DNA of 64,000 bases from Sulfurospirillum sp. (GCF_036802865.1 NZ_DAIRVK010000001.1:667341-731340); one strand, 5' to 3'. Numbered from the stretch's first letter, positions 1,839 through 59,211 are shown. The notes: generated by a model from the sequence alone, not told the origin. A program made the numbers and translations.

Positions 1839-1849
1839 TTTACATGTAG
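1839..1849. repeat. Partial copy of the TTTACATGTAAA palindrome (TTTACATGTAg)
   Basis: Read directly; it lies 6 nt after the RND stop codon. Confidence 0.7.
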
Positions 1850-1862
1850 AAGATAGGGCAAC

Positions 1863-2030
1863 TTATCGTTTTACATGTAAAAGTTTTCGACGCGTTGAGA
1901 CCAACAGGCGCATCATACGGTACACAAAAAGACGCTTGTTCATAATGCTTATTTTACGGCAATTTTTATCTTTCAAACACTCAAATACCTCTTCTAACGC
2001 TAACTTCTCACTTACGGATAGATTTGTCAT
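1863..2030 (-). CDS. Hypothetical 55-aa basic protein, translationally coupled to the upstream XRE gene
   Basis: Hand translation of the minus strand gives MTNLSVSEKLALEEVFECLKDKNCRKISIMNKRLFVYRMMRLLVSTRRKLLHVKR*. Its ATG (2030-2028) overlaps the TGA (2029-2027) of the XRE ORF as ATGA. It is below the ORF-track length cutoff and I recognise no family. Confidence 0.35.
   Translation of the reverse strand: MTNLSVSEKLALEEVFECLKDKNCRKISIMNKRLFVYRMMRLLVSTRRKLLHVKR
1869..1882. repeat. 14-bp perfect palindrome TTTTACATGTAAAA
   Basis: Read directly; it lies in the last codons (LLHVKR) of the putative 55-aa ORF. Confidence 0.85.
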
Positions 2031-2290
2031 ACCGTTCCTTTTTGCCCGTCATTTATCTTACGTACCAGTCTTACAATATCTTCATCTCTTAACATTCCAA
2101 GCATATTAAAAACCACGGGAATCCCCATAGGTGCGCTACTACCGAGCCTCCACTCCTGATAGGTACGCATCGAAATACCAAAGTTTTCTGCCATTTTTTT
2201 TTGAGAAATTTTTTTACCCATATTCTCAGCTTCAATAGCATTGTGCAAAAGATTGATGATATCGCTTGTTTTCATCGTACGATAATACAT
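2027..2290 (-). CDS. XRE-family helix-turn-helix transcriptional regulator (87 aa)
   Basis: The segment ISQKKMAENFGISMRTYQEWRLG matches the HTH_XRE pattern (helix, G-I/V-S, x-x-T-hydrophobic-x-x-W/Y-E). The protein is small and contains a T9 run on the plus strand (2194-2202), read as codons QKKM. Confidence 0.7.
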   Translation of the reverse strand: MYYRTMKTSDIINLLHNAIEAENMGKKISQKKMAENFGISMRTYQEWRLGSSAPMGIPVVFNMLGMLRDEDIVRLVRKINDGQKGTV

Positions 2291-2409
2291 AAAAACGTAT
2301 TAAATATAAATTAAATTGTATAAAATATACTAATTAATTTATATTTTAAACTTTATAATAGATATTATATCTTTTTTATTGTTAATTATATTCTTTATAT
2401 TGATTTAAA

Positions 2410-2427
2410 TATACAATATATTGTATA
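2410..2427. promoter_or_regulatory. 18-bp perfect palindrome TATACAATATATTGTATA, a candidate operator in the XRE/efp divergent region
   Basis: The perfect dyad was verified by hand. The half-site ATTGTATAAAA(A)TAT recurs at 2315-2328 and 2420-2434. The whole 2291-2495 spacer is extremely AT-rich. Confidence 0.3.
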
Positions 2428-2462
2428 AAAATATGCCATTTTGTTGTCTTTGTTTTTTTCGC

Positions 2463-2468: not shown

Positions 2469-2495
2469 GGTGAAAACTAATATTTAGGAGAATTT

Positions 2496-7226: not shown

Positions 7227-7228
7227 AG

Positions 7229-7242
7229 CTTTACATGTAAAG
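7229..7242. repeat. 14-bp perfect palindrome CTTTACATGTAAAG
   Basis: Read directly; it starts 3 nt after the MCP stop, in the convergent gap with the MutS-HNH gene. Confidence 0.85.
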
Positions 7243-7260
7243 AGCCAATGGGCTCTTTAC
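7237..7260. terminator. Bidirectional hairpin GTAAAGAGCC-aatg-GGCTCTTTAC
   Basis: A 10-bp perfect stem overlaps the palindrome on one side and the stop codon of the minus-strand gene (7257-7259) on the other. Both arms carry the CTTTAC/GTAAAG half-site. Confidence 0.55.
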
Positions 7261-10205
7261 TTCTCTTCGTAGTGGAGTTTGAGTCCTTCACTGCTCATGA
7301 CAAAACCACTAATCGTAATTTTGCCCTCATGCACTAGTTTATGGTGTTTCGCACAAAGCGGTATAAGGTTGTAGCGATGATTTTGGTGAAAATGGTCGAT
7401 GTTACCGTTTTCATCGGCACTCTCTTGTGCTTTAATGTGATGGACTTCATCGACATATTCATCACACAGTGCGCACTTGGAGAGGTAGAGGTTTTTGTTG
7501 TATTTGCTGCGTTTTTTCTGCTTTAAAAGCTCGACTTCACCCAGTTCTCCTGCAAGACTTCGACGGATATCATAAGCGGTTTTGATAAACTCTTTATCCA
7601 TGTGTAACGACTTGGCAAACTCCAAGCCATAAAGTGAACTACCACTGCCAATTTCGAGTTTTCGGTTATAAAGAAGTTTGTCATTTTCCTCATCGTAACT
7701 TACGCCTAAATGCAGGTAAATCACCTTTTTAAGTTCGCTAATAAGTGGCAAGTGGCTCAGTTGATGCAGATGGGTGGCAAAGACAAAGAAAGAGCCTAAT
7801 GAGTGCATCTTGGTAATGGCACTCGCAACAATGGCAAGAGCGGATTCGGTTTCTGTTCCATGACTGATTTCATCGCCCAGTACGAGTGAAAACTCTGTGG
7901 TACGGTTAAAGATATTTTTGAGCTCCAACATTTCAACCGTAAAAGTTGAAAGCCCTTTGTAAAGGTTGTCATGGCTGATGATGCGCGTGAAAATTTTATC
8001 AAACAGGTTAAAACGAAGGCTTGCACACGGAACAAAAAAGCCTGCTTGTGCCATAATGACAGCAATACCAAGGCTTTTCATGAGTGAAGATTTACCACTC
8101 GAGTTGATGCCGTAAAGAAGGACACCTTGCACTTCATTGGCGCTGCAGGCTTCTAAGGTAACATGATCGTGGGTAATGTCAGCTGAGCAATGACCTAAGA
8201 AAATGTCATTAGGTATATAGATGCCATTTTCCTCACGAGACTCAATGAGCGGGTGACGAAGCCCAATCGCCTCGATAAAGCGTTTTTCTTCTTGCATTGG
8301 TAGAAGATCGGGTCTGGTGTAGTTGTAAAGTACGGCACATTTGGCATTGCTAAGAGCAACATCAAGTGTTCCAACAAAGGAGATAAGATGCTCTAAGGTG
8401 AGGGCATAATGGGTTTCGATCTTCTCTAGCATCTCATCATAACGTTGCTTCACTAAAGCAATCATTTGTAGGTTACTAAGTGTGATCTCTTGTGAAATTT
8501 CTTCAATCAAAGACGCTGAAATTTTCACGCTGTTTTTAAGATGCCTAAAGGTGAAATCTTTAAAGAAGTAGTGTTTGTCTCCGATGGTAATGAAGCTTTG
8601 CATGAGCTTCTCTTCAATGAGTGCAAAACGGTTTTTACTGATGGAGATGTAGTGACCCTCGCTCTCTAACCATTCGATGCTAAGCGTCGTGCGATTGCTC
8701 TCTTCAAACAGTGCTTCAATATGTTTTGAAATATGTTCAAGTGCACCAAAGCGTTCTTGTTTACTCTGTTCAATCTTGTCGATTTGTGGATAAACACCTC
8801 TTAGAAAAAGGTTCTCACTGATCTGATCTTTACGAAACTTCGCACAGACATCGAGTACAAACGTACTTTGAAGCATCTCTAAAAGTGCTTCGCTTTCATC
8901 AAAAAGATTTTTAGGTGTTGGTACTTTTTTAAGCTCAGCTTCTTTGAGAATACCGATGATCGCCTCAAGCGATGTACTGAGATAATCAAGCTCTAAAGGG
9001 TGCAATTTTTTAAGCGCAATACGCCTTAAAATGCGCTCTAAGTCATACACTTGTTTGAGTGCGATCTCAAATTTTTTATAGTCTTTGATCAGTTGGTTAC
9101 TGAGATCAAAACGCTCATTGAGTGTTTTAAGATCGCAAATAGGATTGAGCAAACGCTCTTTTAAAAGACGTTTTCCTATCGCGGTAGAGGTTTGGTCGAT
9201 GAGGTTTAACAGTGTCATCTCGGAGGGATTTTTAGAGATGATGTCGAGTTGTTCAAGGGCATTGTTACCGATGTAGAGATAACGACTGTTTCCGAGCAAA
9301 ATAGGGCGACTCATTTTCTCGATGATGTTGGCATCATGCTCGATGATAAAATCGCACAAAATAGCTAAGGATTCGCTCGCATACGGGTATCGCTCAATGT
9401 CGAGGTACTCGATAGGAGAGAGCAAGGAGCGAATAGCGTAAATGCGCCCAAAAAGTTCATTTTGATACGCCACTTTGAGACGTTCTTTGTTGATGCTATG
9501 CGCCACGCTTGGTGTAATTTCAAGATAGTTCTGCACCCACTCTTTGTCAATGCTTTCAGTGTTAAACGTAAGAACAAGTTCGCTGGTTTTATAGGTTTGC
9601 AAAAGATTGAAAATCTCATCTAACGCATAGGTTTTATCTTCTCTTGTGCCATGCACTTCGTTGATGATGGTTTTGCCTGTGGTGACATCAATCGCACTAT
9701 AACCTACAGAATAAATCTGGTGGTTGCAGTCAACTAACAACGAGACAAGATAATTTTCACTGGACTCGATGAGGTAGTCGAAGTTCGTACCGGGGCTTAT
9801 AATGTTGGAGATGTAACGCTTCACATGCGGCGGCTCACCTTTTTGGCGCACTAAAACGATGGTGTATTTTTTACTTTGTACTAAGCGTGCAAGGTAGCGA
9901 TCGAGTGAAACCGATGGGATGCCCGCTAATAGGGGGTTTTGCAAAGAGTTTTCTAAAATGGATTTATTTTTGCGGGTGAGTTGGATGTTAAGAAGTTCGC
10001 TGACCTCTTTGGCTTTGCCGATTTGATGGGTTTCATTGTTGACTTCATACGTTTCAAAAAAAGAGCCAATCTCCATAAAAACGATGGTGTTTTTACCATA
10101 TTTTTCTTCAAAAAAGAGCTGAAGATCGAAATAGATTTCGGTCAGTAATCTCTCTTTAGAACAGAGCATTTGCGCAATATTTTCTAGCATTCGTTTCGTT
10201 TCCAC
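7257..10205 (-). CDS. MutS-family DNA mismatch-binding ATPase fused to a C-terminal HNH endonuclease (MutS7-like)
   Basis: 982 aa.
- The N-terminus has a GSFFETYE segment resembling the MutS domain I Phe-x-Glu motif.
- Walker A is [15 protein letters not shown], Walker B is [12 protein letters not shown], and the FATHLHQL motif matches the MutS ABC ATPase.
- The last ~70 aa are [17 protein letters not shown]...[20 protein letters not shown], a Cys-flanked HNH motif.
- No Smr domain is visible. Confidence 0.85.
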
Positions 10206-10831: not shown

Positions 10832-11671
10832 ATGAATCAATACTTACTCGTAGGTGAAGTAAATCGCCTCAAAATCAACCGATATACCGATAATGGCGTT
10901 TACCTGATCTGTGATGACCAAGATGAAGTGTTAATGCCCAACCAATACGTGACATTTGCAATGAAAGAGGGCGATGAAATTGACGTTTTTGTCTACTTCG
11001 ATTCAGAAGATCGCATCGTAGCAAGTACAGTTTTTCCTAAAGCGCTGCTCGATCAATTTGGCTGTTTTGAAGTGGTCGATGTTACCCCCTTTGGTGCCTT
11101 TTTAGACTGGGGTTTACCGAAAGACCTTCTCGTGCCTAAAGCACTGCAAAAGTTCCCTTTTTATGTTGGGATGAAAGTCATTGTTCAGGTCAGTTTAGAT
11201 GATGAAACAGGGCGCATTATAGGCACTCAAAAGTACAATGACTTTTTGAAAAAAGATCTGACAGCGCTCAAACTTAAACAAGAAGTTAAGTGTTTGGTGC
11301 GTGAACGAACCCCTCTTGGCTTTAAAGTGATTGTGAACAACCTTTACGATGGGCTTATTTTTCACAATGAGATTTTTGAGAATATCGAAGTGGGTGATGA
11401 AAAAATTGGTTTTATTAAAACGTTACGCAAAGATGGCAAAATTGATGTTATTTTGCAACCCATCGGTGATAAAAGTGATGAAGTCGCCGCAAAGAAAATC
11501 TTAGAAATTTTAAATGCCACAGGTGGGCGATGCGAGATGAATTATAAGAGCACACCAGAGAGCATTTCACAGCGTTTCGGGTTGAGTCGCAAGGCGTATA
11601 AACGGGCGCTTACGAAGTTGATCGATGCTAAGAAAATCAGTGTAACCGATGAAGGTATGATGCTTCTATGA
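10832..11671 (+). CDS. S1-domain RNA-binding protein, CvfB/YitL family
   Basis: 279 aa. Repeated S1-like beta-barrel segments (VGEVNRLKINRYTDNGVYL, FEVVDVTPFGAFLDWG) and a C-terminal winged-helix-like tail match the CvfB architecture. Confidence 0.82.
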   Translation: MNQYLLVGEVNRLKINRYTDNGVYLICDDQDEVLMPNQYVTFAMKEGDEIDVFVYFDSEDRIVASTVFPKALLDQFGCFEVVDVTPFGAFLDWGLPKDLLVPKALQKFPFYVGMKVIVQVSLDDETGRIIGTQKYNDFLKKDLTALKLKQEVKCLVRERTPLGFKVIVNNLYDGLIFHNEIFENIEVGDEKIGFIKTLRKDGKIDVILQPIGDKSDEVAAKKILEILNATGGRCEMNYKSTPESISQRFGLSRKAYKRALTKLIDAKKISVTDEGMMLL

Positions 11672-12882
11672 GTCGTGTCGCCATTGTCGGAGCGGGTGCT
11701 TCTGGGCTTGTGTGTGCCATCGAAGCGGCACGTAAAGGGCATAGTGTCAGTGTGTTTGAAAAGAACAGCAAAGTGGGGCGAAAAATCCTTGCAACGGGCA
11801 ATGGCAGATGCAATATTTCCAATGAAACGATTACCCTTTCTCGCTACCACGGTGAATCTCCTCACTTTGTCAAAGAGCCATTACGTCGGTTTGATACACT
11901 CACATGTAAAAACTATTTTCGTACGTTAGGGCTTGAAATGCGTGAAGGTGAAGAGGGTAGGCTTTACCCGATGAGCCATCAAGCTTCATCCGTGGTTGAT
12001 ATGTTACTCCACGAAGCCCGAAGTTTGGGCGTGAGTTTTTTGATGGAGAGTGCTGTAACAAGCATCGACAAAAAAGGTGTTGAATTTGTCTTGCAGGTGA
12101 AAGAGCAAACGCACACCTTTGATGCATGTGTGATTGCCTCAGGAAGTGTCGCTATGCCAACACTTGGAAGTTCCAACAGTGGTTACGGTTTTGCCAAAGC
12201 ATTAGGGCACAGTGTGATTGAACCTTACCCTTCGTTGGTGCAGTTGGTGAGCGATGAAGTACATCTTAAAGAGGTCAGTGGTGTAAAGATGGACGCGGGC
12301 GTTGAACTGTACATCGACAATCAAAAGCGCCAAAACGTACAGGGCGATCTTCTTTTTACGGTGTATGGACTCTCGGGTTCTGCTATTTTAGATATCAGCC
12401 GTATGGCATCTAAAGCTTTTGTAGAGGGCGACTCTGTACATGTGGTGCTTGATCTTCTGCCAAATCTTAGTAAAGATGCTTTAAGTTCACTGCTTCAAAA
12501 AAGACTCTCCTTTGCCAAAGACAAATCGCTCTCTTTGTGGTTAGAGGGAATCATTCCTAAAAAACTGGCACTTTTTATCATTCAGCGTGAAAAACTCATT
12601 TCCCTCAAAGAGGCATCATCATTGGGTGCCAAAGAGATCAAAAAAATCGTTTTTGCACTCAAAGCCCTACGTATGAATGTTACTGCTACCAAAGGCTTTG
12701 AGAGTGCGGAGGTCTGCGCAGGTGGTGTGGATGTCCGAGAACTGGATGCGAAAAATCTTATGTCGCAAAAGGTTGAAAATCTCTATTTTTGTGGGGAAGT
12801 TTTGGACATTGATGGCGACTGTGGAGGCTTCAACCTCCACTTCGCATGGGCTTCTGGCTATCTTGTTGGGCAAAGCCTTTAA
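11668..12882 (+). CDS. HI0933/BaiN-like NAD(P)/FAD-dependent flavoprotein
   Basis: 404 aa. It has the dinucleotide fold VAIVGAGASGLVCAIEAARKGHSVSVFEK, then GRKILATGNGRCN, and the C-terminal FCGEVLDIDGDCGGFNL typical of this family. Its start overlaps the upstream stop (ATGA). Confidence 0.88.
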   Translation: MSRVAIVGAGASGLVCAIEAARKGHSVSVFEKNSKVGRKILATGNGRCNISNETITLSRYHGESPHFVKEPLRRFDTLTCKNYFRTLGLEMREGEEGRLYPMSHQASSVVDMLLHEARSLGVSFLMESAVTSIDKKGVEFVLQVKEQTHTFDACVIASGSVAMPTLGSSNSGYGFAKALGHSVIEPYPSLVQLVSDEVHLKEVSGVKMDAGVELYIDNQKRQNVQGDLLFTVYGLSGSAILDISRMASKAFVEGDSVHVVLDLLPNLSKDALSSLLQKRLSFAKDKSLSLWLEGIIPKKLALFIIQREKLISLKEASSLGAKEIKKIVFALKALRMNVTATKGFESAEVCAGGVDVRELDAKNLMSQKVENLYFCGEVLDIDGDCGGFNLHFAWASGYLVGQSL

Positions 12883-15279: not shown

Positions 15280-15341
15280 CTTTCACTCCAACAAAAATAT
15301 GCGTGTATTATAACAAGTCCATGTGGTTTTTTATGGGATTT

Positions 15342-15704
15342 TTAACAGCACTCCATTTCAGCTTTTTCCATGAGTTCAATGCCTTTTTCAAAGTCATACT
15401 CCTCAAAAAGAGCGGAGAGATAAAAAACATGGGAGCAGATGTGGTACAAAATATCCTTAGAATCGTGCTTCGAAAAAATAGCTTTGTAATCTTTAGGTAT
15501 AAGCGTTTCAAACCGAATCCACAAATCATCTTTAGCTTCAGGATGAAGCTCAAAAAGTTCATACATGGCATCAAGCACTTGCGTGGCATTTTCATAGCAA
15601 TCTATGTTGTGAAAACTGACATAACGATCGCGTATCTCTTCCATAAAGGCAGCCTTTTTAAGAGGCTTATGCATGTTGTGTTCCTTGACATTACATATAA
15701 CCAT
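15342..15704 (-). CDS. Hypothetical acidic cytoplasmic protein, upstream of hemJ
   Basis: It is chosen over the antisense ORF 15303..15761 because its amino-acid composition looks normal. The likely real start is Met11 (ATG at 15674), preceded by AAGGAA with a 6-nt spacer. I recognise no family. Confidence 0.5.
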   Translation of the reverse strand: MVICNVKEHNMHKPLKKAAFMEEIRDRYVSFHNIDCYENATQVLDAMYELFELHPEAKDDLWIRFETLIPKDYKAIFSKHDSKDILYHICSHVFYLSALFEEYDFEKGIELMEKAEMECC

Positions 15705-15746
15705 TTTCGTGGAGTTTTAGGCTTGAAAAAATATGAAGTTCTTTTA

Positions 15747-15752
15747 TATAAT
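15747..15752 (+). promoter_or_regulatory. Candidate -10 box (TATAAT) for the RES-domain gene
   Basis: TATAAT lies within cttttaTATAATgttc, in the divergent spacer. Confidence 0.3.
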
Positions 15753-15769
15753 GTTCACTAAATAAATAA

Positions 15770-16666
15770 TTGGTTGGAAAAAAGGGTATATCATTGGAAC
15801 TTTCAGAAGAAATATTGAATCAACTCAGAGGTAAATTACAAAATTTTCAGAAAACCAATTTTGAAGGAAAAACAGTCGAGGACGTTAAGAATGAGCTTCA
15901 TGAGTTCTACAATTCTTATTCCATTGTTATTGCAAATCTTGGTAGATGTCCTGTTTTTAGAGTTAGAAAAATTGAGAATAGTCATGAACATAATACTTTA
16001 AAAGATGTATGGTGCCCTTCTGCTTCCTTTGTAAAAAAACTTGGGCGAGCAAATAATATAGGTGAATCCATGTTCTATGGTGCTCTTGATTACGAAACAG
16101 CGATTAAAGAGGTTGATGTCAAAATTGGTGAGTCTTTTTCTTTGGCTGTGTATAATCTTAAAGAAAAAGAAAATTTTGAACGAAGTAGCGTAGTAATACG
16201 ACCAAGTATTCCTTCTGGATATTATTGTGATTCTATGAGTTTATTTGGTTTAGAATTGAGCGATTTTATCGTTTACCCTGGGGAAGAAACAAAATACATT
16301 AGAAGTTGCGCAATTTCTTCTATTCTATTGAATCTGCCATACAAAGATAGTCTTCTGTACCCATCTGTTAAGAATAATGATTCAGTCAATATTGTAATGA
16401 AAGAACTCGATGCAAAAATTAGATTGAGTTTAAATTTGGTTTTGACGTGCCAATGTATATCTTTAAATAATTATGTCGTGTTTGAAGTAAAACAACCAAC
16501 TACAGATGGGTATCTTCACTTATTGCATAATTTATACAAACAGCCACCTCCGTTGAGAGTGAATGCTCCAAAAATGAGTTTTGAGACAATGTTTAGTGAT
16601 CAAAAGATTCTAAGTTCTGCGCAAGAGATTGAAGACTTACTAAGTTCAGTTTTGGTTAAAAGATAA
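15770..16666 (+). CDS. RES-domain protein (putative NAD-targeting toxin-like enzyme)
   Basis: 298 aa. The conserved R-E-S pattern is visible: VFRVRK, then LGRANNIGESMFYGALDYETAIKEV, then LLYPSVKNNDSVNIVM. The only starts are TTG; TTG at 15794 has AAAGGG 7 nt upstream. Hand counts on sample stretches give ~30% GC, against ~40% for neighbouring genes. Confidence 0.65.
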   Translation: MVGKKGISLELSEEILNQLRGKLQNFQKTNFEGKTVEDVKNELHEFYNSYSIVIANLGRCPVFRVRKIENSHEHNTLKDVWCPSASFVKKLGRANNIGESMFYGALDYETAIKEVDVKIGESFSLAVYNLKEKENFERSSVVIRPSIPSGYYCDSMSLFGLELSDFIVYPGEETKYIRSCAISSILLNLPYKDSLLYPSVKNNDSVNIVMKELDAKIRLSLNLVLTCQCISLNNYVVFEVKQPTTDGYLHLLHNLYKQPPPLRVNAPKMSFETMFSDQKILSSAQEIEDLLSSVLVKR

Positions 16667-16675: not shown

Positions 16676-16693
16676 ATGTTTACATGTAAACAT
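16676..16693. repeat. 18-bp perfect palindrome ATGTTTACATGTAAACAT
   Basis: Verified by hand; it occupies most of the 29-nt convergent gap between the RES gene and the GGDEF-EAL gene. Confidence 0.9.
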
Positions 16694-16695: not shown

Positions 16696-17949
16696 TTACT
16701 GAACCACTAAACTCTCAAATGGCATAGGTTCACTCCATAAATACCCCTGAAAATAGTCAATGCCGAGTTCTTTACATGTAAGGTAAATATCTTCCGAAGC
16801 GACAAATTCTGCAATGGTTTGCATTCCTACTTTTTGGGCAAAGGTCACGATGGCTTCAACGACGGCTTTATGGGTGGCGTTTTTATTGATGGTTTTAATG
16901 AGTGAGCCGTCGATCTTGATGAAGTCAGCTTGGAGTTTGACCAGATACTCAAAGTTAGAGTAGCCTGTTCCAAAATCATCTATGGCGATCTTAACCCCTT
17001 GGCTTTTCAGCAGTGTTAAAAAAGAGATGACTTCAGGATGATTTTCGATGCCTTCTCCTTCTGTTACTTCGATGGTGAGGCGTTCGCTTACATTGTATTC
17101 GTACATTTTCTCCAGTAAAAAATCAACTCTATTTTGGTCTAAAATATCACTGAGTGAGAGGTTTATGGAAAACTCAGCGTTTTTGTCAGCAAAAAAAGCA
17201 AATGATTTTTGGATGACTATTTTGGTAATGTTGCCATAAAGATTGGCTCGCTTTGCATGTTCTAAAAAAAGATAAGGCGAGATGATGCGACCTTCATGGC
17301 GAAGGCGTACCAAGCACTCAAACTTTGGAATTTTCCCGCCCTCAATGCTTTGGGCAAATACTTCAAAACGATCTTTTTTCAACGCTTCACGAATGGTGTT
17401 TTCCCATGTCAAATCGGCTTTGGCATTGGACTGTGGATTGCATAACGAAGGATTTTTGGCATCGTAGATCATGAGATCTTTTCCGATACGTTTGGCTTGT
17501 TTCATTGCAAATTCAGCATTGAGGAAAAGGTTGTCATAATCTATAGCAACACCTATACGAAGGGGTGTGTAGAGTTTTTCTCCTTCTACTTCAATGGGTG
17601 AGTAGCCAAAGTACCACAGGCACGATTCGATGTTTTGGATGAAGTGTTCATGCGAGACCTCTTTGCCTGAGAGAATGGCAAACTCGTCGCCTCCTAGATG
17701 GAAAACAACGGCATGTGCAAAGCGGCGTTTGAGGCGTTGGGAAATGGTTTTGAGTATTTGGTCGCCTACTTCGTAACCATAAGAGTGGTTGAAGTTCCAA
17801 AAACCATTGACGTTTAAAAGGGCAAGTTTGTTGGCAGTAGCGTTGGAAAGGGTATTGATAAAGCGTTGGCGATCAGGCAGTTCGGTAAGCGGATGAATTC
17901 TTCCATAACGCAGTTCATATTTAAGCTCTTTTCGCATATGCACTTGCAC
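16696..17949 (-). CDS. GGDEF-EAL c-di-GMP turnover protein with no N-terminal sensor domain
   Basis: 417 aa. GGDEF is intact (HLGGDEFAIL) with no RxxD I-site. EAL domain residues are present: ECLVRL, INLS, EVTE, DDFGTGYSNFEYL, KIDGS and QGY. Confidence 0.9.
   Translation of the reverse strand: MQVHMRKELKYELRYGRIHPLTELPDRQRFINTLSNATANKLALLNVNGFWNFNHSYGYEVGDQILKTISQRLKRRFAHAVVFHLGGDEFAILSGKEVSHEHFIQNIESCLWYFGYSPIEVEGEKLYTPLRIGVAIDYDNLFLNAEFAMKQAKRIGKDLMIYDAKNPSLCNPQSNAKADLTWENTIREALKKDRFEVFAQSIEGGKIPKFECLVRLRHEGRIISPYLFLEHAKRANLYGNITKIVIQKSFAFFADKNAEFSINLSLSDILDQNRVDFLLEKMYEYNVSERLTIEVTEGEGIENHPEVISFLTLLKSQGVKIAIDDFGTGYSNFEYLVKLQADFIKIDGSLIKTINKNATHKAVVEAIVTFAQKVGMQTIAEFVASEDIYLTCKELGIDYFQGYLWSEPMPFESLVVQ
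16771..16782. repeat. Copy of the palindrome inside coding sequence (TTTACATGTAAg)
   Basis: Read directly; on the minus strand it encodes L-T-C-K of the EAL domain. Confidence 0.7.
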
Positions 17950-19184: not shown

Positions 19185-20585
19185 TTATTTTGTAGCTATA
19201 AGGTCATTCTCTTTCCAACCGCCACCGAGTGCTTTAAAGAGTTCAGCTTGGGAGGTGAGGAGGTATTGTTTGGTTGCAACGACATTGAGTGAGGCACTTA
19301 GAACACTTTTTTGAGCATCTAAGACTTCCAGTTGATTGGCAACGCCTTGGTTAAAACGCTTGGTTGAAAGATCAAAGACTTTTTGGTACGCCTTAAGTTC
19401 TTCTTCTTGGAATGCAAGTCTACTTTTGGCTAAATTCTCTTTTGCCAAAGTGTCATGCACCTCTTTATAAGCTTTTTTGACACTTTGCTCATAACTGACT
19501 AATGAAGATTGAAGATCGGTTTCGGAGATGGAAACACGCTGTTTGATACGTCCAAAATCAAAAATAGGCACGCTCAAACTTGGTCCAAAACTCCATCTGT
19601 TTGCGCTTGATTTTAAGATGTTATTCAAATCATCGCTTTGTTGCCCATAACTTCCTGTCAGACTAATTGTTGGAAAGTAAGCTGCTTTTTCAACGCCAAT
19701 CAGGGCATTTTTACTTCTAAGGTTTTCCAATGCCTCTTTAATGTCGGGACGATTTTCCATCAACGTTGAAGGTACGCCTTGTGGAATGGTAAGAACATTT
19801 GGAAGACTTGCCTCTGTTGTTTGTGTTTCAAAAAGTGCTTGTGGACTTTTGCCTAACAAAATAGCAAGCGTACTTTGTTGGATTTTGTAGCTCTCCATCA
19901 AGCTGTCTTTTGAGGCTTGTATATTGTTGTATTGGGCTAATGCTTGGTTGGCTAAAACATCGCTGATGGTTCCCACTTTTTGTTGTTTTGATCGAAACTC
20001 ATAGCTTGCTTTATAGGAATTTGCACTTTGCTCTAAAATTGCCATACGAGCTTGCAACGACGCTAGGTTAAAGTAGGCACTTACAACATCGTGAATGAGG
20101 CTATTGCGTAACGTCTCACGCGCAGCTTCGGTTGACAGATACAATGCCCAGTTGGATTCACTTTGGCTTGAGAGTCTTCCCCAAAAATCAACTTCGTAGG
20201 ACAAGCTGCCACCCAGTGTATAGTCTGAGTACTCTGAGCGTTTATTTTTAGTGGTTGAAGCTTCATTACTGGTTTGCTGGCGAGTAGCTCCTGCGTTGGC
20301 ACTCAGTGTTGGAAACTCATTGTCAACACTCAGCCCATACGCTTGGCGTGCTTTGAGTACTTTAAGGGCTGAAAGTTTCAGGTCATCACTTCCAAGAAGA
20401 GCTTCATCGACCAAGGCGTTAAGCTTAGCGTCATTAAATTGTTTCCACCACTCTTTGTTGACATGTAATGCTTCTTGGCTACTTTTTGGCGCTTCAATTT
20501 TAGGAACATTGAGATCGGGTTTGAGCGAACATCCTCCCAAAAGGAGGATAGTTACAAACGATAAAAGGGTAATGCTACGAGTCAT
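19185..20585 (-). CDS. RND efflux outer-membrane factor lipoprotein (NodT/CmeC-like)
   Basis: 466 aa. It has a lipobox LLLGGC and two OEP repeats, and it overlaps the pump gene by 11 nt. Confidence 0.9.
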   Translation of the reverse strand: MTRSITLLSFVTILLLGGCSLKPDLNVPKIEAPKSSQEALHVNKEWWKQFNDAKLNALVDEALLGSDDLKLSALKVLKARQAYGLSVDNEFPTLSANAGATRQQTSNEASTTKNKRSEYSDYTLGGSLSYEVDFWGRLSSQSESNWALYLSTEAARETLRNSLIHDVVSAYFNLASLQARMAILEQSANSYKASYEFRSKQQKVGTISDVLANQALAQYNNIQASKDSLMESYKIQQSTLAILLGKSPQALFETQTTEASLPNVLTIPQGVPSTLMENRPDIKEALENLRSKNALIGVEKAAYFPTISLTGSYGQQSDDLNNILKSSANRWSFGPSLSVPIFDFGRIKQRVSISETDLQSSLVSYEQSVKKAYKEVHDTLAKENLAKSRLAFQEEELKAYQKVFDLSTKRFNQGVANQLEVLDAQKSVLSASLNVVATKQYLLTSQAELFKALGGGWKENDLIATK

Positions 20586-27108: not shown

Positions 27109-27142
27109 GTTACATGTAAAAATGAATTTTTTTACATGTAAC
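27109..27142 (+). terminator. Hairpin GTTACATGTAAAAA-tgaatt-TTTTTACATGTAAC, containing two TTACATGTAA copies
   Basis: The 14-bp perfect arms start 8 nt after the MCP stop. A T6 run lies a few nt downstream, so it behaves as a rho-independent terminator. Confidence 0.65.
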
Positions 27143-27173: not shown

Positions 27174-27204
27174 CTTTGGGGCAAATGAAATGAAGGAGAT
27201 GGAT

Positions 27205-27723: not shown

Positions 27724-27760
27724 AAAAGCTTTACATGTAGCCATGACATGTAAAGCTTTT
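27724..27760 (+). terminator. Hairpin AAAAGCTTTACATGT-agccatg-ACATGTAAAGCTTTT
   Basis: The 15-bp perfect arms are built from the palindrome half-sites and lie 22 nt after the FlxA-like stop. The 3' arm ends in TTTT. Confidence 0.6.
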
Positions 27761-36464: not shown

Positions 36465-36541
36465 TGGTGGGTCCTGAGTGGCTCGAACACTCGACCACCC
36501 CGTTATGAGCGGGGTGCTCTAACCAACTGAGCTAAGGACCC
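36465..36541 (-). tRNA. tRNA with CAT anticodon (elongator Met, or Ile2 if lysidine-modified)
   Basis: The reverse complement GGGTCCTTAGCTCAGTTGGTTAGAGCACCCCGCTCATAACGGGGTGGTCGAGTGTTCGAGCCACTCAGGACCCACCA folds by hand.
- Acceptor stem is 7 bp, D stem GCTC/GAGC, anticodon stem CCCCG/CGGGG with loop CTCATAA, and T stem GAGTG/CACTC.
- CCA is encoded.
- The G1-C72 pair argues against an initiator tRNA. Confidence 0.93.
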
Positions 36542-49317: not shown

Positions 49318-50989
49318 AGTATTTTTTGTTTTGTTGCTGACATGTATAGCGCTTTTTGGCGCACCCAATTACATGCAACAGCTTGAGCAGTATGATACAC
49401 AAATGAAAGGCGCAAATAACGATGAAGTGTTACGTGTCTTTCATGGACTCAAAGCAGTTTATATTCAAGCCATTATCTCTGGGGATGAAAACCTAAAAAA
49501 AGAGACGCTTGAGCGCCTGATTAAAACAGCCAAAGTCCTCAAATTGGATGCCTCAAAATATGAGTCAGAATTGGCTACTTTAGGCAAAGATACTAAAAAA
49601 ACAGCTCCATCTAAACCACTTATTCCACCTCCGGCTGCTGAAGAGAGCTTTGAAGCATCACGTAGTACCACCAGTAGTAATAATAATGCTTATCCTTCAG
49701 CACCACAAGCTTCTACTCAAGCCGTTTCTGCTAAAGAGAACAAAGCAGATGCCATGCCTATGAATGCAACAACAACGCAAGCTTCATCATCTTCATTACC
49801 TAAAAACTATAATGGTAAAAACGTATTGCAGCACGTGAAAACCAGTGAAGAAGAAATTGTGCTTGATTTTGGCTCCGCTGTAGTAGAGAGTAGTGTCAAA
49901 ATCTTTGTGTTGAAAACTACCGATGGGTATAAAAAAATTATTGATATACCTGCTATTATTATGAATGCGCCTTTAACAATTACAACACCTAAAAAGCTAC
50001 AAAGTTTACGCATTAGTCAATACAATGCCAATGCAATTCGCATTATTCTAGATGCACCCAGTGCTTTTGAAACGTATGTCAGTGTTTTAGATACACAAGT
50101 CATTTTATCACTCAATAAAAAACCGGTTTTGACTGAAAAAAGAATTATGACACCGGCTGTTGAAGCCCCTAAAAAAGCACCCGTAGTTGCACCTCCACCT
50201 GAACAGCCTTCTGCTAAATCTTATACAGCGCCTACCATCGCACCAGAAGCGCCTGTAGTTGCAAGTAAGGCTACACCATCATCTCCTCCTAGTAAAAAAG
50301 GGCAAAAACGCGACAAAACGATCGTTATCGATGCTGGACATGGTGGTAAAGATGCGGGTGCTATTGGCTATAAGCAACGTATGGAAAAAAATCTTGTGCT
50401 TGATATGGCATTACAACTGGGTAAAGAGCTGAAATCACGAGGATATAAAGTGTTCTATACACGTCAAAGTGATGAGTTTATCAACCTAAGAGACCGCACT
50501 AAAGTTGCTAATGATAAAAATGCGGATCTTTTTATCTCGATACATGCAAATGCTGCGCCTAATGAGGCAAAAAAGCTTTCTATGAAAGGACTTGAGACTT
50601 TTTTCCTCTCCCCAGATCGTTCCGAACGCTCTAAAAACGTAGCTGCATTAGAAAACCAATCGAATATGGAAGAGATGGATTTTTACTCTAAAGAGACTTT
50701 TTTAAATGTCTTTAATCGCGAGAAAATTATTCTCTCCAATAAAGTTGCCATTGATATACAATCGAGTATGCTTAAAAGTGTAAAGAAAAAATATAGCGTT
50801 GAAGATGGAGGGGTAAGAGAAGCACCTTTTTGGGTTTTAGTTGGAGCGACTATGCCATCCGTCTTAATCGAAGTAGGCTATATTAGCAATCCGGATGAGT
50901 CTGATAATATGTTCAATCCACAGTATCAAAAGCACCTTGTTGATGGTATTAGTGATGGACTTGACCAGTATTTTACAAACAATCCTTGA
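49301..50989 (+). CDS. amiA: N-acetylmuramoyl-L-alanine amidase (AMIN domain plus Amidase_3)
   Basis: The ORF is open from TTG 49286; ATG 49301 gives a signal peptide MGKHIRVFFVLLLTCIALFG. It has a P/A/S-rich linker and the catalytic region IVIDAGHGGKDAGA ... ISIHANA ... VLIEVGYISN. Confidence 0.9.
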   Translation: MGKHIRVFFVLLLTCIALFGAPNYMQQLEQYDTQMKGANNDEVLRVFHGLKAVYIQAIISGDENLKKETLERLIKTAKVLKLDASKYESELATLGKDTKKTAPSKPLIPPPAAEESFEASRSTTSSNNNAYPSAPQASTQAVSAKENKADAMPMNATTTQASSSSLPKNYNGKNVLQHVKTSEEEIVLDFGSAVVESSVKIFVLKTTDGYKKIIDIPAIIMNAPLTITTPKKLQSLRISQYNANAIRIILDAPSAFETYVSVLDTQVILSLNKKPVLTEKRIMTPAVEAPKKAPVVAPPPEQPSAKSYTAPTIAPEAPVVASKATPSSPPSKKGQKRDKTIVIDAGHGGKDAGAIGYKQRMEKNLVLDMALQLGKELKSRGYKVFYTRQSDEFINLRDRTKVANDKNADLFISIHANAAPNEAKKLSMKGLETFFLSPDRSERSKNVAALENQSNMEEMDFYSKETFLNVFNREKIILSNKVAIDIQSSMLKSVKKKYSVEDGGVREAPFWVLVGATMPSVLIEVGYISNPDESDNMFNPQYQKHLVDGISDGLDQYFTNNP

Positions 50990-51710
50990 TTGTTTTCCCT
51001 TTTTTCATCGTAGCATCTTTAAAATAGCGTGACCACTGCTCTACTAAAGCATGTTCCTCATGTGCAAGGTAAATTTCAACCATACGTTTTTCGCCAACAA
51101 AGCGTGGTAATGAGGAAAAGTTGAGCTCTTTTGGCAGAGCTTCCATAATATCAATTAAATCATTTTCTGTTGATTCAACGATAAATGAAACAGTGTAAAG
51201 TTTAGGTTGACTAGGGAAGTGTTTATCAAGGGCTTCTTTCGCCATAGGCCATGCCATTGATGGAAATCCTGGGGTGAAAAAGAAACGGTTGAACAGTGAA
51301 AATCCTGGGACATTGTTGACCACATTATGTAAGAGTTCAGAAGAAGGTGGAAGCATTGCCATATTAATACGGTGAGGATATGCTTCATTGCCAAATTGCT
51401 GTTCTATAAGCTCTTTTGCTTTCTCATGTAAAGTTAAAGACTGTCCTGTAAAGACTTCACTGGCAATAGATCGTGTCAGATCATCGGGTGTTGCACCAAT
51501 ACCTCCAAAACAGAACATCACACTTTTTGGGTCTTGTAAAATCATGTTGAAGCAGTTCTGAATAAGGGCAGGGGAATCTTGTATCACAAAACTTCCTGAA
51601 TGGAGAAGTCCTCGATCGCGTAGTTCTTGATTGATAAAGGCGAAGTGTTTATCTACCCTGCGACCATTGAGAAGCTCAGTCCCAATGATGACAGAGTAGA
51701 AGTGTTGCAT
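50973..51710 (-). CDS. CinA-like / MoCF-biosynthesis (molybdopterin-binding) domain protein
   Basis: 245 aa. The segments IIGTELLNGRRVDKH and GGIGATPDDLTR match the CinA N-terminal/MoaB-like fold. Its 3' end overlaps amiA convergently by 17 nt. Confidence 0.72.
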   Translation of the reverse strand: MQHFYSVIIGTELLNGRRVDKHFAFINQELRDRGLLHSGSFVIQDSPALIQNCFNMILQDPKSVMFCFGGIGATPDDLTRSIASEVFTGQSLTLHEKAKELIEQQFGNEAYPHRINMAMLPPSSELLHNVVNNVPGFSLFNRFFFTPGFPSMAWPMAKEALDKHFPSQPKLYTVSFIVESTENDLIDIMEALPKELNFSSLPRFVGEKRMVEIYLAHEEHALVEQWSRYFKDATMKKGKTIKDCL

Positions 51711-52291: not shown

Positions 52292-52296
52292 TCCTT

Positions 52297-55811: not shown

Positions 55812-57349
55812 TAGAGCGATTGTTAATGAAAAACCATCTCTCATTTGCAGAGTGTGATATAGAGTTTAAAAAAGGGCTCGTTGTTTTTAGTGGTCCCAGT
55901 GGTGCTGGTAAATCCGTTTTGATGCAAGGACTTCTCTCATTATTTGGTTATGGCGATGTTCATGCCGATGTGATTGAGGCGGTTGTTGGCAAAAATTTGG
56001 GTCTCGATGCTTTTGGTTTTGAAGAAGAAGATCCTAATATCTTTAAATTTCTCAAAGCTAAAAATGCACGTTATTTCATCAATTCACAAGCTATCTCAAA
56101 AAAGGGGATGGTGGAACTCTCTCGTACCTTTGTCAATTACCTTTCCGTGAAAGATAACAGTGAATTTGAAAATAGCCGTCTTTTGGGCTTACTTGATGGT
56201 GTTTGCGCGCGTCAAGAGTCTACGCATACTGAAGATGTGAGTAAATTTGAAACACTTTTTGGTGAATATAAAAAACTTAAAGAAGAGCTCGAACGCATCG
56301 AAGCAGAAGAGAAAAAAATAGAAGATCTTAAAGAGTTCGCACGTTTTGAAATTGCTAAAATTGATGAGGTTTCTCCTAAAATTGGTGAAGATGAAGAGCT
56401 TGTAAGTTTTAAAAAATCACTCTCCAAAAAAGAGAAGATTGAAGCTGCGATGCAAAAAGCAGGTGCGGTGTTTGAACTGGAAGGAAGTGTAACCGAAGTT
56501 TTGAATCTTATTGAAGTTGATAGTAGCTTTTTTGATGCTTGCATGAATGAGTTACGCCTTATCTTTGAAAAACAAAATGAAACTTTAGAAGCACTCGAAG
56601 AGATCGATGTTGAATCATTGTTAGACCGTATTGAAAAAATTGCGCAACTTAAAAAGCGTTATGGCTCGATTGAAGAAGCAATAGAACATAAACTGCAGCG
56701 TCAAGAAGAGTTATCACGCTATGAAAACATTGCTTTTGAGAAAGCTCAGTTGGAAAAAGAGGTTGCGAAATATCAAAGCAATGTTGCTACTGAAAGCCAT
56801 AAAATCAGTCAAACACGTCAAAAATATTTATTACTTTTAGAAGCACGTCTCAATGATTATCTTTCACAATTGTATATGCCAACATTGCATTTACGTTTAG
56901 ATGAAGGTACATTATGTGAATTAGGGTTTGATGTTTTACATGTAAACTTGGGCAAAGTCGATCTTAAAAAGATCAGTTCAGGTGAATACAACCGTGTACG
57001 CTTAGCTTTTCTTGCAACCCATAATGAGTTTTTACTCTCTAGCGGAGGTGTTTTGATTTTAGATGAGATCGATGCAAACCTCAGTGGAAAAGAGTCTATG
57101 AGTGTTGCAAATGTGCTCAAAACGCTCTCATCCAAGTACCAAATCTTTGCCATTTCGCATCAACCACAGCTCTCTTCCCGTGCTGATCAGCACTTCTTGG
57201 TTATCAAAGATGCTTTACATGTCAGTCGTGTTTTGCCTCTTGGAGAAGAGGAGCGCATTGTCGAATTAGCACGAATGGTCAGTGGCGAAAATGTGAGCGA
57301 AGAGGCGATTGTTTTCGCGAAATCCCTTTTGGAGAGTGCAAATTTGTAA
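55808..57349 (+). CDS. recN: DNA repair protein RecN
   Basis: The ORF is open from TTG 55796. GTG 55808 overlaps the nadK stop as GTGA and gives the typical VIERLLMKN start. Walker A is GPSGAGKS, followed by a long coiled coil and C-terminal SGGEYNRV and ILDEIDANL. Confidence 0.93.
   Translation: MIERLLMKNHLSFAECDIEFKKGLVVFSGPSGAGKSVLMQGLLSLFGYGDVHADVIEAVVGKNLGLDAFGFEEEDPNIFKFLKAKNARYFINSQAISKKGMVELSRTFVNYLSVKDNSEFENSRLLGLLDGVCARQESTHTEDVSKFETLFGEYKKLKEELERIEAEEKKIEDLKEFARFEIAKIDEVSPKIGEDEELVSFKKSLSKKEKIEAAMQKAGAVFELEGSVTEVLNLIEVDSSFFDACMNELRLIFEKQNETLEALEEIDVESLLDRIEKIAQLKKRYGSIEEAIEHKLQRQEELSRYENIAFEKAQLEKEVAKYQSNVATESHKISQTRQKYLLLLEARLNDYLSQLYMPTLHLRLDEGTLCELGFDVLHVNLGKVDLKKISSGEYNRVRLAFLATHNEFLLSSGGVLILDEIDANLSGKESMSVANVLKTLSSKYQIFAISHQPQLSSRADQHFLVIKDALHVSRVLPLGEEERIVELARMVSGENVSEEAIVFAKSLLESANL
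56934..56946. repeat. TTTTACATGTAAA copy inside recN
   Basis: Read directly; it encodes V-L-H-V-N. A further partial copy, CTTTACATGT, lies at 57213-57222 and encodes A-L-H-V. Confidence 0.8.
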
Positions 57350-57450
57350 CATTTTTTTTAAACTTCATTTCTGCTTGTTGTAAAAATCATACGAATATCA
57401 TACCTTTGCTTTACTCTGCGTGTAGAGTTTACATTTATGAGGAGGTTTGT

Positions 57451-59100
57451 ATGCAAACTTGGCAACAAGTTTATGCGCCTATTGGTGGTAGTTTAGGATT
57501 ATCGGCATTGGTTGCGCTTATTCCAATTATTTTTTTCTTCTTGGCACTTGCAGTGTTCAGAATGAAAGGTCATTTTGCGGCAACGATTACATTGGCGCTT
57601 TCCATAATAGTCGCTGTAGTAGCGTTTGGTATGCCTACAAATATGGCATTTGCTTCAGCAGGGTATGGCTTTTTGTACGGTCTTTGGCCTATAGCTTGGA
57701 TTATCGTAGCATCGGTTTTCCTCTACAAGCTAACGGTTAAAAGTGGGCAATTTGGAATTATTCGTAACTCCATTCTTACCATTACAGACGATCAACGTAT
57801 TCAAGTAATCCTCATTGGTTTTGCTTTTGGTGCGTTTTTAGAGGGTGCTGCGGGCTTTGGTGCACCTGTTGCGATTACAGCAGCAATTCTTGTTGGACTT
57901 GGTTTTCAACCACTCTATGCAGCAGGACTTTGTTTGATCGCAAACACCGCTCCAGTCGCTTTTGGTGCTTTGGGCATACCTATCTTAGTCGCTGGTAAAA
58001 TTACAGGTATTGATCCTTTCTTGGTAGGCGCAATGGCTGGACGACAACTTCCGTTTCTTTCTATTCTTATTCCTCTTTGGATTGTAGCTATGATGGACGG
58101 TTGGAGAGGTGTGAAAGAAGTATGGCCAGCAGCACTTGTGGCAGGTGGCAGTTTTGCATTGTCTCAATATGCAACATCTAACTTCATAGGACCAGAGTTA
58201 CCAGACGTAACTTCTGCAATCCTTTCTATTATCTCTTTAACTGTTTTCTTGAAATTCTGGAAACCAAAAAATGTCATGAAAGGGCATGTTTCTGCTGAAC
58301 TTGAGCGAGAAACACAAAAAGCGCATACGGGCGGCGAAGTGCTTAAAGCCTGGTCACCGTTTATTATTCTCTCCATCATGGTTACTATTTGGACTACCAA
58401 TGCCTTTAAAGCGTATTTTGCTAAAGGTGCCATTATGGCGGGAACAATTTTTAACTTTGAGTTTACAAGTATTAGTAATACTATTTATAAAATGGCACCG
58501 ATCGTGGCTCAGCCTACAAACTTTAAAGTTATCTATACATTTAACCCTATTTCAGCAACGGGAACTGCGATCTTCTTTGCTGCGATTATCTCTATGTTTG
58601 TGTTGCGCGTCAATGTTTCTACTGCAGTTAAAACGATGGGTGAAACACTTTTTGAACTTAAATGGGCAATTTTATCGATCGGTATGGTTTTAGGCTTTGC
58701 TTTTGTCATGAACTACTCAGGTATGTCAACAACCATGGCACTTGTGCTTGCAAACACTGGGTTCTTGTTCCCATTCTTCTCTCCAATTTTAGGTTGGTTG
58801 GGCGTATTCTTGACAGGCTCAGATACATCATCCAATGCACTTTTCTGCGGATTGCAACAAAATACAGCGCAACAGCTGGGGCTCAATGAAACCTTGATGG
58901 TTACTGCTAATACAACAGGTGGTGTATGTGGTAAGATGATTTCTCCACAATCTATCTCAATTGCATGTGCATCAGCAGGTATTGTTGGAAAAGAGTCTGA
59001 TCTCTTTAGATTTACGGTTAAACACAGTTTGATTCTTGTCGCCATAATGGGTTTAATGACAATGGCACAAGCATACATCTTAACATGGATGATTCCTTAA
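57451..59100 (+). CDS. lctP: L-lactate permease (LctP family)
   Basis: ATG 57451 is preceded by AGGAGG at 57440-57445; the longer TTG-started ORF from 57406 is rejected. The N-terminus MQTWQQVYAPIGGSLGLSALVALIPIIFFF and the multi-TM layout match the LctP/LldP family. Confidence 0.92.
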   Translation: MQTWQQVYAPIGGSLGLSALVALIPIIFFFLALAVFRMKGHFAATITLALSIIVAVVAFGMPTNMAFASAGYGFLYGLWPIAWIIVASVFLYKLTVKSGQFGIIRNSILTITDDQRIQVILIGFAFGAFLEGAAGFGAPVAITAAILVGLGFQPLYAAGLCLIANTAPVAFGALGIPILVAGKITGIDPFLVGAMAGRQLPFLSILIPLWIVAMMDGWRGVKEVWPAALVAGGSFALSQYATSNFIGPELPDVTSAILSIISLTVFLKFWKPKNVMKGHVSAELERETQKAHTGGEVLKAWSPFIILSIMVTIWTTNAFKAYFAKGAIMAGTIFNFEFTSISNTIYKMAPIVAQPTNFKVIYTFNPISATGTAIFFAAIISMFVLRVNVSTAVKTMGETLFELKWAILSIGMVLGFAFVMNYSGMSTTMALVLANTGFLFPFFSPILGWLGVFLTGSDTSSNALFCGLQQNTAQQLGLNETLMVTANTTGGVCGKMISPQSISIACASAGIVGKESDLFRFTVKHSLILVAIMGLMTMAQAYILTWMIP

Positions 59101-59127
59101 TTGATGTAGTAGTGTAAAATATTTCTT

Positions 59128-59154
59128 AGGCGGTGGTTTGATCCTCCACCGCCT
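59128..59154 (+). terminator. Hairpin after lctP (AGGCGGTGG-N9-CCACCGCCT)
   Basis: A 9-bp GC-rich perfect stem lies 28 nt after the stop; the T-tract is weak. Confidence 0.45.
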
Positions 59155-59201
59155 CCTCTTTAGAAAACTCCCAAAATTTTTATGTTACAATTAAAATCAA
59201 C

Positions 59202-59211
59202 TTACATGTAA
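59202..59211. repeat. TTACATGTAA palindrome copy 16 nt upstream of the REC-REC-GGDEF start codon
   Basis: Read directly, in caacTTACATGTAAtagttaggataacttATG. Confidence 0.8.

Follow-up and report, generated by a model that had tools for sequence, protein, structure and literature searches.

Hyper-abundant short words with a shown or suspected role in DNA uptake are, to our knowledge, known from three groups of bacteria only, the Neisseriaceae, the Pasteurellaceae and the cyanobacteria, and the rise, switching and death of such words are still debated. The DNA uptake sequences (DUS) of Neisseriaceae, which come in dialects, and the uptake signal sequences (USS) of Pasteurellaceae are short words enriched more than 100-fold genome-wide, whose variants differ between lineages and for which a drive acting on the DNA itself is presumed; they are found within genes in permissive reading frames and as inverted pairs that act as terminators. 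The highly iterated palindrome HIP1 (GCGATCGC) of cyanobacteria is a hyper-abundant palindrome with orphan-methyltransferase sites; it is kept at orthologous sites, and some strains have alternate palindromes in its stead. Its abundance correlates with DNA-uptake machinery, and in a cyanobacterium methylated HIP1 makes natural transformation more efficient, by up to more than 100-fold. A ratchet model was proposed by Elhai for HIP1 and the alternate HIPs, later work argues for selection plus a role in transformation, and an action in nucleoid structure has been proposed as well. In Campylobacter jejuni, only DNA with a motif methylated by the orphan enzyme CtsM is taken up (PMC8468864). We have analyzed a stretch of 64 kb from a Sulfurospirillum sp. 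(the window) in which a palindromic 12-mer, TTTACATGTAAA, and the 10-mer that it contains, TTACATGTAA, are repeated. We conclude with high confidence that the window holds what survives, intact or in decay, of an iterated palindrome that is genome-wide and lineage-specific; it is maintained at the DNA level in sister lineages, and some of its copies have been co-opted as terminator-like hairpins.

The 12-mer, a perfect palindrome, was found six times in the window (at 1870, 7230, 16679, 37780, 40615 and 56935) against 0.00 expected from dinucleotide-preserving shuffles, and the 10-mer ten times (at the same six sites and at 16772, 27110, 27132 and 59202) against 0.09. The 12-mer is more than 100-fold too frequent, and chance or base composition are ruled out by the shuffles. 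A preliminary description of the window, made from its sequence alone, had claimed a strong over-representation, and the shuffles bear it out; all of its coordinates for the 12-mer and the 10-mer were recovered, and its near-copies (1839, 16771, 27730, 27746, 57213/57214 and 11902) are all present. In total there are 24 ACATGT sites in the window, 12 of them within TACATGTA and most with T-rich 5' and A-rich 3' flanks. Inside genes the word is read in two frames, TTT-ACA-TGT-AAA (F/L-T-C-K) in rluD, the GGDEF-EAL gene and the gene at 11668-12882, and xTTA-CAT-GTA-AAx (L-H-V-K/N) in trmB and recN. Only these two frames, both free of stops, are used; in the third, TAA would be read as a codon. 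The use of two frames, in unrelated proteins and at amino acid positions that vary across orthologues, rules out a peptide motif and argues for pressure acting on the DNA, as had been proposed when the two frames were first noticed.

The intergenic copies (1839/1870, 7230, 16679, 27109/27131, 27730/27743 and 59201) are each located downstream of a gene end. This much of the initial account of their placement stands; convergent gaps, said there to be the usual setting, make up only two of the six locations (7230 and 16679), and the other four lie between genes of the same strand. Another palindrome, AAAGCTTT, occurs ten times in the window, often directly beside the motif as in AAAGCTTTACATGTAAAGCTTT (e.g., 7227-7244 and 27724-27760), and may form an outer layer of its intergenic form.

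The word in related genomes

We have compared the window with the dnaE neighbourhoods of its relatives and, as a second and independent locus, with recN neighbourhoods from Joint Genome Institute metagenomes (both sets are L-numbered below). At the dnaE locus the 10-mer was found nine times in 18.6 kb of L003 (Sulfurospirillum sp. SCADC), five in 5.7 kb of L004, 11 in 16 kb of L005 (0.00 expected by shuffles), 12 in 18.7 kb of L008, seven in 11.9 kb of L027, five in 13.5 kb of L031 and three in 7.5 kb of L050, and in L005 and L008 every ACATGT belongs to the word. At the recN locus there were 7-10 copies per 21.5 kb in L203, L206, L208, L209 and L210/L214. Over both regions most motif-rich loci have 0.4-0.9 copies per kb, and the relatives hold three to four times the number of copies of the window, whose density of 0.16 per kb is about one third of that in motif-rich genomes. 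The word was absent from the dnaE loci of Arcobacteraceae, Sulfurovum, Helicobacter and Clostridia, and the exact 14-mer gave scattered matches to viral contigs, with at most three TTACATGTAA in any locus among the matches listed. The possibility, raised in the preliminary description, that the copies are confined to the window and unconserved does not hold, the word being present in relatives and conserved at orthologous sites. Genome-wide counts within a Markov expectation are likewise improbable already from these two loci.

Crude calls of open reading frames (ORFs) assign 36 copies to coding and 29 to intergenic DNA at the dnaE locus (window included), and 38 and seven, respectively, at the recN locus. 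By these calls, 55-84% of the copies in motif-rich genomes lie within genes, although the intergenic density (2.1-2.6 per kb) is 6-12 times that of coding DNA (0.21-0.35 per kb). The word is like DUS and USS, to whose distribution it had been likened at the outset, in being enriched by orders of magnitude, here at two loci, and in occurring both inside genes and as inverted pairs past stop codons, where they form hairpin arms at gene ends. A symmetrised profile of the flanks gave the consensus (B)(Y)TTTACATGTAAA(R)(V), with symmetry extending to 14-16 bp.

The coding copies arise by substitution, without indels, at residues that are variable among orthologues. In an aminotransferase gene, seven genomes read K-R-F-T-C-K (TTTACATGTAAA) where the window, L002, L010 and S. 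cavolei read K-R-Y-G-H/T-K (TACGGACATAAA), a change of six of the 12 bases and of three residues, with flanks as diverged as the rest of the gene. A miniature mobile element, be it a repeat of the repetitive extragenic palindromic (REP) or miniature inverted-repeat transposable element (MITE) type or a pair of insertion-sequence ends, would account for a repeated palindrome that is often paired in intergenic gaps, and a REP-like element was among the alternatives offered originally. Coding copies that are gapless replacements of the same length, flanks that are unrelated beyond about 16 bp and the lack of any transposase gene found in the window leave this explanation close to refuted.

When the sites of L203 are compared with those of other motif-rich genomes, 34 of 38 show perfect conservation, whereas all aligned 10-mers together give 9-25% (p ~1e-16), and at the dnaE locus 10 of 13 sites are conserved in motif-rich genomes. 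Bare ACATGT, i.e., not flanked by T and A, occurs only 14 times in 178 kb of motif-rich loci where about 36 would be expected (a depletion of about 2.5-fold), while the motif-poor clade has 18 against about 21 expected and no depletion. This depletion, limited to the motif-rich loci, indicates that partial matches are either completed or removed there. Restriction-site avoidance was considered and rejected, since the word is enriched and only bare ACATGT is depleted, in motif-rich genomes only. We conclude that a DNA-level process actively maintains the word in related Sulfurospirillum genomes.

Other Campylobacterales lineages carry different iterated palindromes, CTTACATGTAAG, CTCTACATGTAGAG, CTATCATGATAG and CTTAGTACTAAG. 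All of these alternate words are AT-rich palindromes of 12-14 bp with a core of 4-6 bp, which is CATG except in L071 (GTAC). The clade of L011, L013, L014, L015 and L076 carries CTCTACATGTAGAG (CTACATGTAG is found four times in L076 against 0.00 by shuffles) and has its own variant in dnaE at a site where all other genomes carry unrelated sequence. L028 (1-23498), a Campylobacterales metagenome-assembled genome (MAG) with a DnaE 70% identical, carries CTATCATGATAG (TATCATGATA nine times against 0.06 by shuffles; ATCATGAT 12 times), a word also found twice within 4.4 kb of the metagenome contig L222. L071 (1-23525), also a Campylobacterales MAG (DnaE 66% identical), carries CTTAGTACTAAG (TAGTACTA 11 times against 0.26 by shuffles), L020 carries GCTTACATGTAAGC (without a shuffle count) and L009 a mixture of variants. 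The core TACATGTA is common to the variants in L011, L013, L014, L015, L016, L022 and L076, in L020 and in L009. No iterated word was detected in L010, L007 and L200-L202, and a search for a replacement motif in L010, L002 and L007 found none.

Sister lineages with different palindromes make the pattern closer to that of HIP1 and the alternate HIPs than to the asymmetric uptake sequences of Neisseria and Haemophilus. Both HIP1 and the Sulfurospirillum word are hyper-abundant perfect palindromes in coding and non-coding DNA, are conserved at orthologous sites and give way to other palindromes, or to none, in some lineages; the core of HIP1 is the site of an orphan methyltransferase, and CATG is that of an apparently orphan one in one Sulfurospirillum species. 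They differ in that HIP1 is a GC-rich 8-mer of cyanobacteria that reaches a higher density, whereas the word is AT-rich, 12-14 bp long, has another core and belongs to Campylobacterota. Also unlike HIP1, the word is strongly enriched intergenically, serves as hairpin arms and is apparently in neutral decay in a whole clade. As for CATG itself, it is markedly under-represented in the loci of Arcobacteraceae, Sulfurovum and Helicobacter (L033, L035, L036, L038, L040-L042, L046 and L049; 373 observed against about 670 under a first-order model), and the deficit is smaller in the Sulfurospirillum loci, window included (215 against 274).

Decay and hairpins in the lineage of the window

In neighbour-joining trees the nearest neighbours of the window are L002 and L010 for the dnaE locus, L213 and L202 for the recN locus. 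The clade that they form has motif-rich genomes as its sister group and is nested within further motif-rich lineages (L005/L008, L209 and L210), which indicates that the motif-rich state is ancestral. The window keeps only two of seven L203 sites, L213 one of eight and L200-L202 none of 15, and L010 keeps none of six L003 sites, a retention close to the neutral background of 10-16%. At least eight near-copies in the window (the decayed coding copies of Table 1) have orthologues in relatives that either are perfect or differ from the word by a single base. From these comparisons, the word is ancestral to the clade of the window and no longer maintained there, with coding copies decaying at about the neutral rate and most of the remaining ones located in terminator-like hairpins. 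Synteny in the two compared regions is largely intact despite the loss of the word.

The preliminary description had also reported duplicated copies forming hairpins, and three sets do fold into long stems right after stop codons (1839-1881, 27109-27142 and 27724-27760). The copy at 7230 overlaps a hairpin richer in G+C, and the dnaE stop is followed by a hairpin of swapped half-sites. Terminator-type features (a G+C-rich stem-loop, a T run and a gene end) are found in some intergenic pairs (7237-7260, 27109-27142 and 31355-31388). No RNA family was matched at the motif hairpins by Rfam. The hairpin upstream of dnaE is conserved across species, and in L010, where ACATGT has been lost, compensatory changes (CTCTACATAT...ATATGTAGAG) preserve the stem, which indicates that the structure is functional there whatever the word.

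It might be thought from this that the word is primarily a building block of terminators or RNA hairpins and its coding copies incidental. Seven of the ten perfect 10-mers of the window are intergenic, all past gene ends, the motif is part of three of the best terminator-like hairpins of the first 40 kb, and the compensatory changes in L010 point the same way. We consider this very unlikely all the same. In motif-rich genomes most copies are coding, are conserved to the base and cost amino acid changes; coding copies cannot be terminators, a single 12-mer makes only a weak A-T (in RNA, A-U) stem, and the hairpin needs no particular sequence, as L010 illustrates. Furthermore, the intergenic share in motif-rich genomes is 29% (Fisher p = 0.013 against the window), and the excess in the window looks like survivorship, i.e., persistence where the hairpin is useful. 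The word supplies arms to the hairpins, but the hairpins do not explain the word.

The loss of the word over a largely syntenic background bears on another possibility, namely that the copies are sites for an accessory homodimeric DNA-binding protein (nucleoid-associated, chromosome-organising, defensive or regulatory), selected for all over the chromosome and with a specificity that differs among lineages. A perfect palindrome of 12-14 bp with two half-sites of 6-7 bp is a typical target of a dimer, the sites are strongly conserved in motif-rich genomes, T and A tracts flanking flexible CA/TG steps suit DNA bending, and HIP1 offers a precedent in its proposed part in nucleoid structure. The Noc-binding sites (NBS), the SlmA-binding sites (SBS) and the matS sites of MatP are likewise palindromes of 12-16 bp that dimers recognise, dispersed over coding and intergenic sequence. 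Such sites, however, number tens per genome, with a macrodomain bias, while the word extrapolates to hundreds or thousands of copies and its loss in one whole clade marks it as dispensable. Selection for binding alone would not deplete bare ACATGT cores, and no candidate protein was identified. On balance we find this explanation improbable.

What may maintain the word

In S. barnesii SES-3, single-molecule real-time (SMRT) sequencing detected N6-methyladenine (m6A) at 99.1% of CATG, assigned to M.Sba3II (Sulba_2268), an enzyme with no cognate nuclease listed, and Sulfurimonas denitrificans also has a CATG m6A enzyme (PMC4752239). The link of the word to CATG methylation that had been put forward among the first alternatives is plausible in the light of these data. 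The CtsM system of C. jejuni, in the same phylum, is comparable in that an orphan m6A methyltransferase acts on a short palindrome, RAATTY, and uptake into the periplasm needs the methylated site; RAATTY is a 6-mer, whereas the Sulfurospirillum word covers 12-14 bp with conserved flanks around CATG.

Our preferred reading, which we put forward tentatively, is that the word may be a self-DNA tag centred on a CATG that is probably methylated, by an apparently orphan m6A methyltransferase, and read by a dimeric component of natural transformation, either at uptake or at a later step of processing or recombination. Alleles bearing the word would be preferentially re-acquired; the word would spread in this way and persist even at the price of a His or Cys in the protein, and partial matches would be driven to completion. 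Where two copies are paired at a gene end, they would double as a terminator hairpin. The clade of the window would have lost the maintaining factor, its coding copies decaying at about the neutral rate and its survivors being held mainly by hairpins. The methylation of these particular sites, the connection to transformation and the identity of the recogniser are what we infer.

A number of observations weigh against the tag. No recombination tract was detected around a shared motif site, whose flanks are diverged like the remainder of the gene. The window contains no methyltransferase, competence gene or pilin, and scanning all the Campylobacterales loci compared, with crude motifs, revealed none there. 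The methylation data come from S. barnesii, a species other than the genomes compared here, and a literature search, with subscription journals outside it, found no report of natural transformability in Sulfurospirillum. The word is a perfect 12-bp palindrome, whereas DUS and USS lack such symmetry and are orientation-specific, and their density is somewhat above the one copy per about 1.5-2.4 kb of the word in motif-rich genomes. We know of no receptor comparable to ComP for the Sulfurospirillum word. DUS dialects follow phylogeny, whereas the distribution of the word is patchy: it is shared with distant lineages that are also motif-rich (L027, and L215 and L219, whose RecN are 50-53% identical), and lineages closer than these have no word or another one. 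The same word in distant but not in closer lineages is explained no less well by a horizontally mobile driver, e.g., a methyltransferase, than by vertical inheritance of an uptake receptor.

Such a patchy distribution indicates a driver that can be lost and perhaps transferred, and it keeps alive an explanation centred on the methyltransferase. This would be a repair ratchet of the Elhai type, in which an activity akin to mismatch repair or very-short-patch repair, tied to a CATG or ACATGT methyltransferase, converts near-matches to the complete palindrome, the word building up and being retained without any signalling role, and in which loss of the enzyme would start neutral decay. The core of the palindrome, CATG, can be methylated, and in S. 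barnesii an orphan-like m6A methyltransferase acts on CATG; the depletion of bare ACATGT is confined to motif-rich genomes; methyltransferase swapping would produce both the patchy distribution and the GTAC core of L071; and the model is the one proposed for HIP1 and the alternate HIPs. Even so, we regard the ratchet as unlikely. The conserved word, at 12-14 bp, goes far beyond the length of a methyltransferase site, six substitutions out of 12 at one site with three residue changes, fixed in several genomes, are large for a patch-repair bias, and the later HIP1 work favours selection and a transformation role. In addition, we know of no such repair enzyme in this group.

Extending the self-DNA tag beyond the present lineage, Sulfurospirillaceae and other Campylobacterales might use interchangeable, lineage-specific palindromes of 12-14 bp, mostly centred on CATG, as methylation-dependent signals of self-recognition and uptake for natural transformation. 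We think this generalisation rather doubtful. If true, DUS-type signals would have originated here independently, as the first palindromic ones known outside cyanobacteria, and the methyl-mark rule of C. jejuni would take on a general form. The case adds a fourth group to those with hyper-abundant words, with several distinct palindromes in related lineages, and it provides a natural experiment in which a clade with stopped maintenance and neutral-like decay stands beside sisters with about 90% of sites frozen. With motif-rich and freshly decaying sister lineages side by side, gene presence and absence should reveal the recogniser, so that the gene maintaining the word becomes accessible to test through the gene content of motif-rich and motif-poor genomes, as does discrimination of methylated-motif DNA as a general rule in Campylobacterota. 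In practice, including the methylated word in constructs might ease the transformation of environmental Sulfurospirillum that respire organohalides, arsenic or selenium. The preliminary description knew of no described element with this sequence, and we found none either in the literature search mentioned above; papers containing the 12-mer string were all unrelated, and the 10-mer string gave nothing relevant among the matches listed.

Sites and genes of the window

Table 1. Copies of the word and associated hairpins in the window, with the state of the orthologous sites in relatives
Feature	Position	Setting in the window	Orthologous sites
Hairpin pair, TTTACATGTAGA (one mismatch) at 1839 and perfect TTTACATGTAAA at 1870	1839-1881	Long hairpin; starts 6 nt past the stop of the resistance-nodulation-division (RND) permease ORF 175-1833	
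Decayed coding copy TTTACCTGTAAA	5156-5167	DJ-1 family gene	L008, CTTACATGTAAA
Intergenic site, perfect 12-mer at 7230-7241	7230-7260	4 nt past the stop of a methyl-accepting chemotaxis protein (MCP) gene, convergent with mutS; overlaps hairpin GTAAAGAGCC-AATG-GGCTCTTTAC (7237-7260)	Site common to L005 and L008
Decayed coding copy CTCACATGTAAA	11899-11910	Flavoprotein gene 11668-12882	L008, perfect TTTACATGTAAA; L005, CTTACATGTAAA (10-mer perfect)
Perfect 12-mer	16679-16690	Convergent gap between RES-domain gene 15770-16666 (+) and GGDEF-EAL gene 16696-17949 (-); within palindrome AATGTTTACATGTAAACATT	
Coding copy TTTACATGTAAG (10-mer perfect)	16771-16782	75 nt from the 3' end of the GGDEF-EAL gene	Identical in the S. 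cavolei group (L006, L029, L030)
Decayed coding copy TTGACATGTAAT	20458-20469	Outer-membrane efflux gene	L003, perfect 12-mer
Hairpin GTTACATGTAAAAATGAATTTTTTTACATGTAAC	27109-27142	Two perfect 10-mers, 14-bp stem; 8 nt past MCP gene 25398-27101	First copy of the pair common to L002 and L003
Hairpin AAAAGCTTTACATGT-AGCCATG-ACATGTAAAGCTTTT	27724-27760	Between small ORF 27190-27702 and dnaE	Conserved in L002-L004, L006, L029 and L030
Hairpin at the dnaE stop	31355-31388	Arms are swapped half-sites (TATGTAAAGG ... CCTTTACATA)	L004 and L031, intact CTTTACATGTAAAG
Decayed coding copy TTAACATGTAGG	31569-31580	Histidine-kinase gene 31394-32410 (-)	Perfect 12-mer in L003, L004, L031, L050, L008 and L009
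Perfect 12-mer	37780-37791	rluD codons 3-6 (M-E-F-T-C-K)	Same sequence in L031; decayed in L002 (TTTATATGTAAA) and L010 (TTTATCTGTAAA)
Perfect 12-mer	40615-40626	Within trmB (L-H-V-K)	
Decayed coding copy TTCTCATGTAAA	51421-51432	Gene 50973-51710 (-)	Perfect 12-mer in L206-L210 and L214; L203, TTTACATGTAAT (10-mer perfect)
Decayed coding copy TTTACATAGAAA	55346-55357	NAD kinase gene	Perfect 12-mer in L203-L209
Perfect 12-mer	56935-56946	Within recN	Identical in L203-L210 and L214; decayed in the closest relatives L200-L202 (TTTACACGTCAA) and in L213 (TTTGCAAGTAAA)
Decayed coding copy TTTACATGTCAG	57214-57225	recN	L203-L209, TTTACATGTAAG
CTTACATGTAAT (10-mer perfect)	59201-59212	101 nt past the lactate permease gene, 15 nt 5' of the CbrR-like response regulator gene	Same sequence in L206 and L208; TTTACATGTAAA in L210 and L214
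Decayed coding copy CTTACCTGTAAA	63485-63496	hisB	L203, L206 and L208-L210, CTTACATGTAAA

The window is core chromosome of a Sulfurospirillum species. Its DnaE is 96% identical to that of a soil MAG and 95% to that of Sulfurospirillum sp. SCADC, the next matches being other Sulfurospirillum, Sulfurospirillaceae and S. cavolei loci, and its G+C content varies between 36 and 42%. The genes are ordinary core genes (efp, chemoreceptors, mutS, an RND efflux operon, dnaE, rodA, rluD, trmB, ftsEX-like genes, spoT, tyrS, aspS, adk, recN, lactate permease and hisB); a long form of TrmB and a CbrR-like regulator are also encoded, and both point to Campylobacterota. The only Rfam match in the window is a single tRNA gene at 36468-36541 (-).

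Some of these genes have features of their own. The RES-domain gene is preceded by a 152-aa ORF without family match (region 15303-16666), a layout typical of toxin-antitoxin pairs of the RES type. The ORF at 175-1833 aligns with RND efflux permeases over their C-terminal half only (profile positions 509-1003 of 1009), and a stop codon is found 5' of position 175; the gene may be split or truncated. An RND operon that is complete is located at 19185-24851. The MutS homologue encoded at 7257-10205 is long (982 aa) and scores 389 bits against the NCBIfam MutS cut-off of 480, i.e., it is a divergent form.

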